NCBI GenBank assembly: GCA_964636545.1
Contig: CAZWSR010000001.1
Coordinates: 1 to 64,000, forward strand
From: Candidatus Undinarchaeota archaeon
Lineage (GTDB): Archaea; Undinarchaeota; Undinarchaeia; Undinarchaeales; UBA543
Length of the DNA: 64,000 nt
Reading direction: 5' to 3'
Part shown: one piece after another, positions 16,511 through 52,825 of the stretch
How the letters are laid out: every line of letters starts with the position of its first letter
Numbering within the stretch: the first letter of the stretch is position 1
Translations under genes and position numbers: made by a program
The notes under the pieces: model-generated
The model's input: the letters and a program-made list of their open reading frames with translations, nothing else
The model's database searches: none
What the model was told of the DNA's origin: nothing

Positions 16511-16711
16511 TTAGGCTCGTGTTGAGATTACTTCATCAGGCAAATACTTTTTAGCATTTAGAATTTCAATACCAAGAAGTTGGTTATTAGCTGAAAAATC
16601 AAGATTAATTTCCTGATTCATAGAAATTGTTCTTTTAACTTCTCCTGCGCCGATACTTTCTTTTAGATAAATATATGCAGCATTTGCTTCTTTGTCGTAG
16701 TTTAATTTCAT
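16511..16711 (-). CDS. DUF2283 family small protein
   Basis: YDKEANAAYIYL...INLDF....LLGIEILNA. Confidence 0.85.
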   Translation of the reverse strand: MKLNYDKEANAAYIYLKESIGAGEVKRTISMNQEINLDFSANNQLLGIEILNAKKYLPDEVISTRA

Positions 16712-16757
16712 AAAAATAAGATAGAAACAAGAGTTTATAATGTTTTAGTGGTCTTTT

Positions 16758-16848
16758 GCGCGGGGGCCGGGATTTGAACCCGGGAAAGTCTGTGAAAGAC
16801 TAACACAGTCTTCAGCTGTGCTTGTTAACCAAGCTCCAACACCCCCGC
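16758..16848 (-). tRNA. Atypical type II (long variable arm) tRNA with GAA anticodon
   Basis: GCGGGGG/CCCCCGC acceptor; TTG/CAA D stem; CACAG-CTGAAGA-CTGTG anticodon arm; AGTCT-TTCAC-AGACT V arm; CCGGG-TTCAAAT-CCCGG T arm; G73; no CCA. Confidence 0.85.
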
Positions 16849-16865
16849 AATTTTTATATACTACT

Positions 16866-16940
16866 CAGGCGTATGGTATACACCTGTGAAAGACCTACAC
16901 AGTTCTATACTGTGCTTGTGCCCAAGCTTCGGCACACCCA
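16866..16940 (-). ncRNA. tRNA-derived structured leader (partial paralogue of the adjacent tRNA)
   Basis: Shares AGCTTGG, ACAAGCACAG, ACTGTGT and GTCTTTCACAG with the tRNA; lacks T arm; three hairpins. Confidence 0.55.
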
Positions 16941-16964
16941 TTTTTATTTTGTGCCAGCGGAGAC

Positions 16965-16972
16965 TATATAAA
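16965..16972. promoter_or_regulatory. Bidirectional TATA box (mtaB and the tRNA transcript)
   Basis: TATATAAA on + lies about 30 nt before the mtaB ATG; TTTATATA on - lies about 25 nt before 16940. Confidence 0.5.
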
Positions 16973-17002
16973 TATTAATTAACTGGAGTGAGTTTATTGA
17001 GT

Positions 17003-52736: not shown

Positions 52737-52825
52737 GCGGGGGTAGCAAAGCCTGGTCAAATGTGCTAGGTTGAGGGCCTAGTTCCTTAGTGGATTCGAG
52801 GGTTCAAATCCCTTCCTCCGCACCA
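52737..52825 (+). tRNA. tRNA-Leu(GAG)
   Basis: GCGGGGG acceptor, CTAGG-TTGAGGG-CCTAG, long V arm, GGTTCAAATCC, A73 with encoded CCA. Confidence 0.95.

Follow-up and report, generated by a model that had tools for sequence, protein, structure and literature searches.

The window analysed here comprises positions 1 to 64,000 of contig CAZWSR010000001.1 (assembly GCA_964636545.1) from a Candidatus Undinarchaeota archaeon, and our subject is a small transfer RNA (tRNA) gene on its minus strand, which we name tRNA X, together with the short segments that flank it. X combines a long variable arm (hereafter V arm) and G73 that form the serine identity set with a non-serine anticodon, GAA. It is preceded by a truncated copy of itself, with a TATA-like box between the two, and is followed by a short trailer segment and a small open reading frame (ORF); the coordinates are collected in Table 1. 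The source genome (G000) is archaeal, spans 840 kb in 39 contigs with 37% G+C and is 83% complete, and the public runs that hold the stretch are marine DNA metagenomes. We describe X as a member of a so far undescribed archaeal tRNA family and weigh what such a tRNA may do.

Structure of tRNA X

The first-pass annotation of the window, made from its letters alone, had described a minus-strand tRNA with a set of paired stems, a loop carrying GAA and G73 as discriminator, and every one of these details proved correct by ARAGORN, by Rfam and by direct reading. ARAGORN predicts a tRNA-Phe(gaa) at 16758-16848 on the minus strand, and in a permissive run the Rfam model RF00005 matches 16759-16848 with 49.0 bits (gathering score 29, E 1.3e-9), a hit that the speed filters of the gathering run over the entire window had passed over. 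The acceptor stem has 7 bp (GCGGGGG/CCCCCGC) and is followed by U8 and G9, after which comes a weak 3-bp D stem, UUG/CAA (U10-A25, U11-A24 and G12-C23), with G13 and A22 left unpaired. The D loop contains G18 and G19, and U8 and A14 are conserved. The anticodon stem has 5 bp (CACAG/CUGUG) and the T arm reads CCGGG-UUCAAAU-CCCGG. Archaeal tRNA-Sec has extended 9/4 acceptor/T arms and a UCA anticodon; X, with 7/5 arms and GAA, is not a tRNA-Sec.

The folding energy of X beats that of 200/200 dinucleotide shuffles (z -4.55). Its single-sequence minimum-energy fold is not the cloverleaf (-42.8 vs -32.6 kcal/mol for the cloverleaf). Across six relatives, 97.3% of the cloverleaf cells are paired, as compared with 56.6% and 86.5% for the two helices specific to the alternative fold, and these comparative data identify the cloverleaf as the conserved fold of X. 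The 5' strands of the D stem and of the anticodon stem are able to pair with each other in most members (86.5% of cells in X and five relatives), an alternative pairing that may matter for folding or for the self-copy described below, which forms a closed hairpin there.

An assembly error at G34, which had been raised as a possible refutation, or at G73 can be set aside because the contigs of four public runs, from four studies, are identical to the letter: there are 0 differences between 16500 and 17100 (three of the four runs may derive from the source sample, and the other, X7, carries no such flag). X is a real class II tRNA.

X is additional to the normal decoder set

The source genome encodes a canonical class I tRNA-Phe(GAA) of 75 nt (C5:6289-6363), leucine tRNAs with the anticodons GAG, UAG, UAA and CAA, all with A73, and serine tRNAs with the four anticodons GCU, GGA, UGA and CGA, all with G73. 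X is therefore an extra gene, and the separate tRNA-Phe(GAA) and tRNA-Leu(UAA/CAA) genes that the first-pass annotation had proposed looking for were all found. The tRNA-Leu(GAG) that lies in the window, at 52737-52825, is a canonical A73 leucine tRNA with an encoded CCA. RNase P RNA is present as well.

Seryl-tRNA synthetase (SerRS) is encoded by a single standard copy (on C2; TIGR00414, 538 bits) and the alpha subunit of phenylalanyl-tRNA synthetase (PheRS) is also encoded. The single leucyl-tRNA synthetase (LeuRS; C5:26940-29612, L390:941-3613) is of the bacterial type, as it scores 1003.6 bits on TIGR00396, above the cut-off, and 337.3 bits on the archaeal model, for which the cut-off is 648.5. 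A dedicated second SerRS or LeuRS was not found, with one of each in this 83%-complete genome. All canonical leucine tRNAs nonetheless retain the UUAGUG V loop.

X belongs to a family with changing anticodons

A BLAST search with the 221-nt X region against 61 relatives returned generic T-arm matches and one 70% match, in the sister species G001. We built a covariance model (R1) from X and this counterpart and ran it on the 17 genomes that make up the whole phylum in our collection, of which 13 belong to the order (75-98% complete). R1 yielded six high scorers, every one inside the order, on which the model was rebuilt (R2). X scores 109.9 bits with R1 and 101.3 bits with R2, and the six order members span 87-101 bits under R2. 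Their anticodons are GAA in G000, GAG in G001, UAU in G008 and twice in G010, and GAU in G011. A seventh member, in G010, has the glutamate anticodon UUC and scores 73.3 bits, inside the range of canonical tRNA-Ser. Altogether, seven X genes occur in 5 of the 13 order genomes, with three of them in G010.

When R2 was run on 151 relatives, no further high scorer appeared, and the next-best matches outside the order were canonical archaeal tRNA-Ser genes in 17 of the 19 loci inspected. Absence outside the order is not established, since the seventh member itself scored in the tRNA-Ser range and the loci inspected outside the order numbered just 19. Within the order, X(GAG) coexists with a canonical A73 tRNA-Leu(GAG) in G001, X(GAU) with a canonical intron-bearing tRNA-Ile(UAU) in G011, and X(UAU) with a canonical tRNA-Ile(GAU) in G008, where a canonical tRNA-Ile(UAU) was not among the 36 tRNAs detected (genome 79% complete).

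A pattern scan of metagenomes, in which the most frequent acceptor sequence, A35, G37, A38, G73 and a long second gap were all fixed, returned 88 stretches. Twenty of them match R2, two being bacterial tRNA-Leu, so that the X-like matches amount to 18/88 and to 16 distinct sequences. These 16 members carry the anticodons UAA (8), CAA (3), GAA (3) and UAU (2), a spectrum that is biased by the search pattern, which imposed A35 and G73. Pattern scans gave 0 matches in viral contigs and at least 120 stretches in genome contigs, those listed being nearly all bacterial and taken as chance matches. All members have a 7-bp acceptor stem and a 5-bp T stem, and a T-loop insert sits at the same place in 13/16 metagenome members and in two order members. 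X represents a separate, third class II family whose anticodon changes between genomes, and the labels tRNA-Phe, -Leu, -Ile and -Glu that are assigned by anticodon to X genes in small archaeal genomes are probably wrong.

The cloverleaf is under selection

The six order members are about 67% identical per column, and double changes affect 18 of the 25 base pairs. In an alignment that was fitted to the model, this level is reached by 0/500 shuffles, and slid controls give at most 4. Compensatory changes are present in all five stems, including double changes in 5/5 pairs of the V stem, and at the tertiary pair 15:48 three members have G:C where the other three have A:U. These patterns indicate that X is intact and under selection rather than decaying. 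They bear out the argument, made at first from intact pairing within the window, against simple decay, and supply the covariation in relatives that the first-pass annotation had suggested searching for.

Amino-acid identity

According to the sections of PMC9976931 consulted here, serine identity consists of the V arm and G73 independently of the anticodon, A73 is crucial for leucine identity, an A73 to G73 exchange can switch a leucine tRNA to serine identity, and the archaeal phenylalanine determinants are A73, G20 and C13-G22. G73 is found in 23/23 X members (in the 16 metagenome members it was demanded by the pattern). All 23 canonical leucine tRNAs that we collected have A73 and the UUAGUG V loop, in which the archaeal leucine determinants A47c and G47d show here; X lacks this motif, and the V loop differs in every member of the family. 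The archaeal phenylalanine determinants are replaced in X by G73, U20 and G13.A22, and the body is not of the phenylalanine type, as it has a 20-nt variable region with a stem and not a short class I loop. Of the Leu/Ser-type body described at first, the SerRS set is upheld, with the long V arm and G73 present and the LeuRS and PheRS sets absent.

We scored the family with nhmmer profiles built from 24 serine and 23 leucine tRNAs of the order genomes. X members reach 22.8-38.8 bits on the serine profile (cognates 35-78) and 11.5-28.6 bits on the leucine profile (cognates 50-84), and X of the source genome itself reaches 22.8 and 28.6 bits, respectively. Both profiles score X at the cross-isotype level, and the likeness to the tRNA-Leu(GAG) at 52737 that had been pointed out before is superficial. 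Because X keeps G73 and a long V arm without A73 and the leucine V-loop motif, its determinants suggest that charging with serine is most likely; leucine charging appears possible and phenylalanine charging unlikely.

UUY codons keep their meaning

Codons were compared in reciprocal-best orthologues, 319 pairs between G000 and G001 (89,870 aligned codons) and 319 pairs between G000 and G002. UUY codons (Y, pyrimidine) of the source genome align to phenylalanine in 80.7% (G001) and 81.7% (G002) of cases, and in the reverse direction in 82.5% and 80.5%; they align to serine in 1.2% and 0.7%, and in the reverse direction in 1.0% and 0.7%. The frequency of UUY is 4.61% in G000 and 4.51% in G001, and for CUY, which matches the GAG anticodon of the G001 member, the values are 3.78% (G001) and 3.84% (G000). 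The alignments indicate that UUY means phenylalanine in the source genome. Codon use gives no sign of a response to X; any missense must be rare or conditional, or else X is non-decoding. The suggestion that X is a mistranslating tRNA at UUY is weakened to this extent: the codons are neither recoded nor avoided, and any mistranslation would be low-level or conditional.

A co-evolving self-copy lies upstream of X

The truncated copy upstream of X, which we name X', spans the D arm, the anticodon arm and the 5' strand and loop of the V arm, and over its final 11 nt (16884-16894) it is identical to the V arm. The T arm and the 3' strand of the acceptor are missing from X', which is called by no tRNA finder. 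An upstream self-copy that ends in the V loop is present for all 23 members. The 5' half of the V arm is repeated exactly over 6-15 nt in 22/22 tested loci (p <= 0.02 in 20/22) and over 10 nt in the 23rd, as against 0/20 canonical leucine and serine control genes of G000, G001 and G002. The copies track lineage-specific changes of their own tRNA, and in 19/22 loci the best partner for the antisense strand of the copy is the tRNA next to it (mean -65.6 vs -39.7 kcal/mol). For the source genome, the duplex between X and the antisense of its copy (anti-X) is computed at -75.2 kcal/mol, and the next best of 43 genome tRNAs gives -48.8 kcal/mol.

Several known arrangements were considered for this architecture and rejected. 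A split or permuted tRNA does not fit an uninterrupted gene beside a copy that, in most loci, has no acceptor strand, and the staggered 3-nt bulges of a bulge-helix-bulge intron are missing from the V arm and from the leader-trailer helix. A C/D-box guide RNA would have C and D boxes, of which the copy's antisense strand has none; the differences between copy and tRNA are not restricted to adenines, as they would be for the template/variable pair of a diversity-generating retroelement; and the co-variation of copy and tRNA, seen in every lineage, is at odds with an integrase attachment-site scar.

The box between copy and tRNA mostly reads TATATAAA or TATTTAAA across loci, with TTTATATA on the opposite strand. 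An all-A/T 8-mer begins 19-27 nt past the V-loop end of the copy in 21/22 loci and at offsets 10-16 or 32-38 in 0/22, with a background of 5.6% per position. The distance from box to tRNA is variable, from 3 to about 100 nt, and in 17/23 loci the box is too close to the tRNA to serve as its own promoter. At the 5' boundary of the copy, 19/22 loci have an A-run, defined as 7 or more A in 12 nt. Judged by this spacing and base composition, we lean towards reading the flank as a divergently transcribed antisense small RNA (sRNA) gene. The box would be its promoter, at the distance that archaeal TATA boxes keep from the transcription start, and an oligo-T run on the antisense strand would mark its other end. 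The predicted transcript would be the complement of X' and an imperfect complement of the D, anticodon and V arms of tRNA X. The copy's likeness to the tRNA breaks off precisely at this boundary, which a short gene read in the direction away from the tRNA would account for. Further upstream, the palindromic ATTTATATAG element is the probable promoter of a sense X'-X transcript. In the metagenome loci L318, L337 and L372, a ACTAGTTCT motif lies about 20-35 nt upstream of the self-copy and is a possible regulatory site.

The trailer complements the V arm over 6-9 nt in six order members (p 0.046 to <0.001) and over 5 nt in the seventh. No such complement occurs in the canonical leucine and serine controls (0/20) or in the 16 metagenome members (p >= 0.16). 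In the minimum-energy folds of the precursor, the trailer pairs with the upstream copy in 5/6 cases. The flanks, with their self-copy, TATA-like box at fixed spacing and trailer complement, had gone unmentioned in the first-pass annotation and are the strangest feature of the locus.

Table 1. Features of the tRNA X locus, in window coordinates
Feature	Position	Strand	Description
DUF2283 small ORF, 66 aa	16511..16711	minus	47 nt downstream of X; PF10049, E 4e-14
Trailer segment AAAGACC	16750..16756	minus	begins 3 nt after G73; complements the V-arm 5' strand and loop and the upstream copy
tRNA X	16759..16848	minus	class II, 7/5 acceptor/T arm, GAA, G73 at 16759, no encoded CCA
Variable region of X, 20 nt	16784..16803	minus	5-bp stem AGUCU/AGACU, loop UUCAC
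Anticodon GAA (positions 34-36)	16811..16813	minus	loop CUGAAGA, with U33, G37 and A38
TATA-like box	16853..16860		TATATAAA on minus, TTTATATA on plus; 4 nt from the tRNA 5' end, 23 nt from the copy end
X', partial self-copy	16884..16939	minus	tRNA positions 3 to ~57, 45/55 identical
Predicted antisense sRNA anti-X, ~60 nt	16884..16950	plus	predicted start ~24 nt downstream of the TATA box, end at the T5/T4 run 16940-16950
Palindromic TATA-like element ATTTATATAG	16964..16973		~25 nt upstream of X' (minus), ~15-25 nt upstream of the methylthiotransferase start (plus)

Genomic context and mobility

The genes that flank the unit in the source genome, encoding MTAP and a MiaB-like t6A methylthiotransferase, are directly adjacent in G001, where the ~480-bp segment of G000 (16511-16987), which carries the DUF2283 ORF, X, the copy and the promoter, is absent from between the same flanks (G001:C22, L119). 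In G001, the unit instead forms a ~250-bp insert within an epimerase/oxidoreductase spacer, and both G002 and G000 have this spacer without the insert. The unit of promoter, copy, tRNA and trailer behaves like a mobile cassette, for its chromosomal position differs between sister species. A hint at its route of movement comes from a short stretch that the left end of the G001 unit has in common with the start region of the methylthiotransferase gene in G000.

Among the loci inspected, no conserved protein partner and no aminoacyl-tRNA synthetase paralogue was found beside the X genes; the PurM gene that adjoins X in G011 is not SelD. DUF2283 may be an antitoxin partner, and it is reportedly mentioned in a paper on an integrative and conjugative element. 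It is not in the toxin-antitoxin survey PMC2701414.

Other tRNA genes of the order

In G010, an ordinary tRNA-Ser(GCU) with a 33-nt D-loop insert, for which ARAGORN makes no call, lies about 370 nt downstream of X(UAU) (G010:C30, L073:7317-7431). Two tRNAs, an intron-bearing X(UAU) and an ordinary tRNA-Ser(UGA) of another family, are preceded by an acceptor-stem hairpin (L075, in G010:C25 upstream of 2944, and L071, in G012:C10). This leader hairpin repeats both strands of the tRNA's own acceptor stem round an inner hairpin and is followed by a conserved UCGYAUAMGCUC linker, which suggests that the leader mimics the acceptor stem or that the element is an intron of unusual kind.

The tRNA-His of the source genome, on the same contig and outside the window (G000:C1:88485-88559), has a 12-nt exact complement between leader and trailer, TAGCTGATAGCT. 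The duplex of -39.1 kcal/mol, a possible processing stem, is reached by 0/200 shuffles and is far stronger than in all remaining tRNAs of the genome. A AGCTNNCAGCT-like motif is repeated in the leader and trailer of the Arg UCU, Arg UCG, Met, Glu UUC and His tRNAs; these tRNAs are located at about 98.4-101.6 kb and 135.5 kb of G000:C1 and at C13:2039-2115.

Relation to known systems

The closest parallels to X combine a class II body with an anticodon that contradicts it. Bacterial allo-tRNAs have a V arm with G73 or U73 and diverse, mostly non-serine anticodons, among which UAU predominates; they are predicted to have serine identity, often lie near mobile or toxin-antitoxin genes, and have been proposed to act in missense suppression and/or as regulatory RNAs (Mukai et al. 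2017, PMC5389517). X resembles them in its long V arm, its G73, its varied non-serine anticodons and its status as an addition to the normal set. It differs in that allo-tRNAs are bacterial and have 8/4 or 9/3 arms, whereas X is archaeal with standard 7/5 arms, and some X members have archaeal-type T-loop inserts. The self-copy with its antisense architecture is a property of X that the sections consulted of the same source do not describe for allo-tRNAs.

Nematode nev-tRNAs are class II tRNAs with UAU or CCC anticodons that are charged with leucine and weakly expressed (Hamashima et al. 2012, PMC3333845). Like X, they join a class II body to the anticodon of a class I amino acid, with UAU as a main type, coexist with a canonical intron-bearing tRNA-Ile(UAU), and are conserved within their lineage without a large effect on the proteome. 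Unlike X, which has G73 and lacks the leucine determinants, they are eukaryotic, cluster with tRNA-Leu(UAA) and are leucine-charged. The tRNA-Ser(CAG) of CUG-clade yeasts is a further parallel, being a serine-type class II tRNA (G73, long V arm) with G37 and the anticodon of a hydrophobic residue (PMC9976931). In those yeasts, the codon is largely reassigned and its usage has adapted, whereas the genome that carries X keeps the canonical decoder and displays no codon adaptation.

The table of mismatched class II tRNAs in a 2014 review lists none for Archaea (PMC4033280). Our full-text literature search, which had most subscription journals outside its range, returned no archaeal mismatched class II tRNA and no such tRNA/antisense pair.

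Type I toxin-antitoxin modules are compact, mobile two-gene units in which a short antisense RNA acts against the 5' part of the transcript for a harmful product. In the X unit, a TATA-like box at promoter distance in 21/22 loci and a T-run in 19/22 would give the predicted antisense RNA a comparable layout. The harmful product would differ, being a tRNA in place of a peptide, and antisense RNA and toxicity are predictions here.

A proposed regulated missense tRNA and its rivals

The overall explanation that we prefer, with a confidence that is about even, is that X is a regulated, mobile missense tRNA that is charged with serine and held in check by an antisense RNA, an archaeal counterpart to allo-tRNAs and nev-tRNAs. 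The single SerRS would recognise the long V arm and G73, ignore the anticodon and charge X with serine, and at UUY codons the resulting Ser-tRNA-X(GAA) and the canonical tRNA-Phe would be competitors, with Phe-to-Ser missense as the outcome. Given that the code is unchanged, X would have to be kept at low or conditional activity. This control is probably built into the locus: a divergent antisense sRNA of about 45-65 nt would be produced from the truncated copy, between the TATA box and the oligo-T, and its 5' end would complement the V arm, the part of its own tRNA that serves as serine identity element. The same anti-V-arm segment is carried in cis, within this order, by the 3' trailer of the precursor.

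A number of observations weigh against this explanation. Phe-to-Ser missense across the proteome should be costly, and the orthologue codon comparison reveals neither recoding nor avoidance of UUY in the source genome; unreduced UUY fits a very low activity of X but fits equally well the absence of any translational role. The cross-isotype score on the serine profile makes recognition by SerRS plausible, not assured, and the U10-A25/U11-A24 D stem is atypical. The antisense reading is built on spacing and composition, the TATA-like box is nearly palindromic, and some canonical tRNAs of the source genome are also preceded by A-rich leaders. As no other promoter lies between copy and tRNA in 17/23 loci, a sense transcript through the copy is also required there. 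The complement between leader and trailer in the source genome alone is 7 nt long and not significant (p 0.27), and is meaningful only across loci. Finally, the neighbours of X are not conserved and are mostly housekeeping or unrelated genes, and the search for public runs holding the stretch found no RNA run among the holders.

The unit can also be read as an RNA-only addiction or defence cassette, in which a serine-charged, misreading tRNA would be the 'toxin' and the short divergent antisense RNA the 'antitoxin', a proposal that we consider unlikely. The 5' end of the antisense RNA would invade the V arm and keep its own tRNA uncharged or unprocessed. Upon loss of the cassette or a shut-off of transcription, for example during virus attack, the labile antisense RNA would decay and proteome-wide mistranslation would follow; the misread codons would be those of phenylalanine in the source genome and of leucine, isoleucine or glutamate elsewhere.

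X may alternatively have no role in translation and act in regulation, as a structural RNA, as a substrate of processing, or together with the copy or its antisense RNA, with an anticodon free to drift. We regard this as doubtful but worth entertaining, for the anticodon varies among close relatives (GAA, GAG, UAU, GAU, UUC) while the body is conserved, codons are neither avoided nor recoded, X scores at the cross-isotype level on both profiles, and the architecture of self-copy and trailer is found in none of the canonical control tRNAs. Most bacterial allo-tRNA(UAU) species may themselves be unused in translation (PMC5389517). What speaks for decoding is the retention of the features of an L-shaped tRNA, namely the 7/5 arms, G18 and G19, the UUCAAAU T loop, the 15:48 pair and G73, and of a 7-nt anticodon loop with U33 in 7/7 order members, followed by G37 and A38. 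The T-loop inserts of two order members and 13/16 metagenome members would have to be taken out of a working tRNA.

If X does decode, it could carry leucine or another hydrophobic residue and cause near-neutral missense at phenylalanine, isoleucine and leucine codons, as nev-tRNAs do. The A35 anticodons for such codons in 6/7 order members fit this possibility, as do G37 and A38, which agree with leucine-type loops, and the UAA (8) and CAA (3) of the metagenome members, which are leucine anticodons themselves, although the A35 bias of that set stems from the search pattern. The leucylation of nev-tRNA(UAU) (PMC3333845) and the higher score of X on the leucine profile (28.6 vs 22.8 bits) point the same way. 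G73 in every member, set against A73 in 23/23 canonical leucine tRNAs, makes leucine or hydrophobic charging distinctly improbable, since A73 is the key determinant for a bacterial-type LeuRS, the type present here (PMC9976931); the UUAGUG V-loop motif is missing too, and one member has the glutamate anticodon UUC. Charging by PheRS through GAA, which would make X a lineage-specific type II tRNA-Phe as the first-pass annotation had allowed, is far less probable still. The loop with GAA and G37 is identical to that of the canonical tRNA-Phe and PheRS alpha is present, but X is without A73, G20 and C13-G22, its orthologue in the same genus reads GAG and other relatives read UAU, GAU and UUC, and a canonical tRNA-Phe is already in the genome. 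We give equally little credence to a functionless X, be it a duplicate in decay (pseudo-tRNA) or a scar left by the integration of a mobile element, with the copy as a neutral remnant. The patchy distribution of the unit (5/13 genomes), its different sites in sister species and the clearly degenerate upstream copy would suit such an origin; it is opposed by the compensation in 18/25 pairs, by the pairing of 97.3% of cells at about 67% identity per column, by copies that follow the lineage-specific changes of their own tRNA in 19/22 loci, and by the fixed boundaries of the copy and its fixed spacing to the TATA-like box.

Implications

Class II tRNAs whose anticodon contradicts their body were previously known from nematodes and some bacteria, and X adds an archaeal family with an ordinary 7/5 fold. 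Because this family is conserved, independent lineages keep tRNAs that could break the code. A partial self-copy that co-evolves with the tRNA and is arranged like an antisense gene has not been described for allo- or nev-tRNAs and offers a concrete way in which a cell could restrain a dangerous tRNA. If the antisense RNA and the charging with serine are both true, it becomes tractable to ask whether mistranslating tRNAs in nature are selfish elements or tools under regulation, and how codon reassignments start. If the unit is in fact an RNA-only cassette, it would constitute a new class of toxin-antitoxin system and a natural, switchable ambiguity of the genetic code in archaea.

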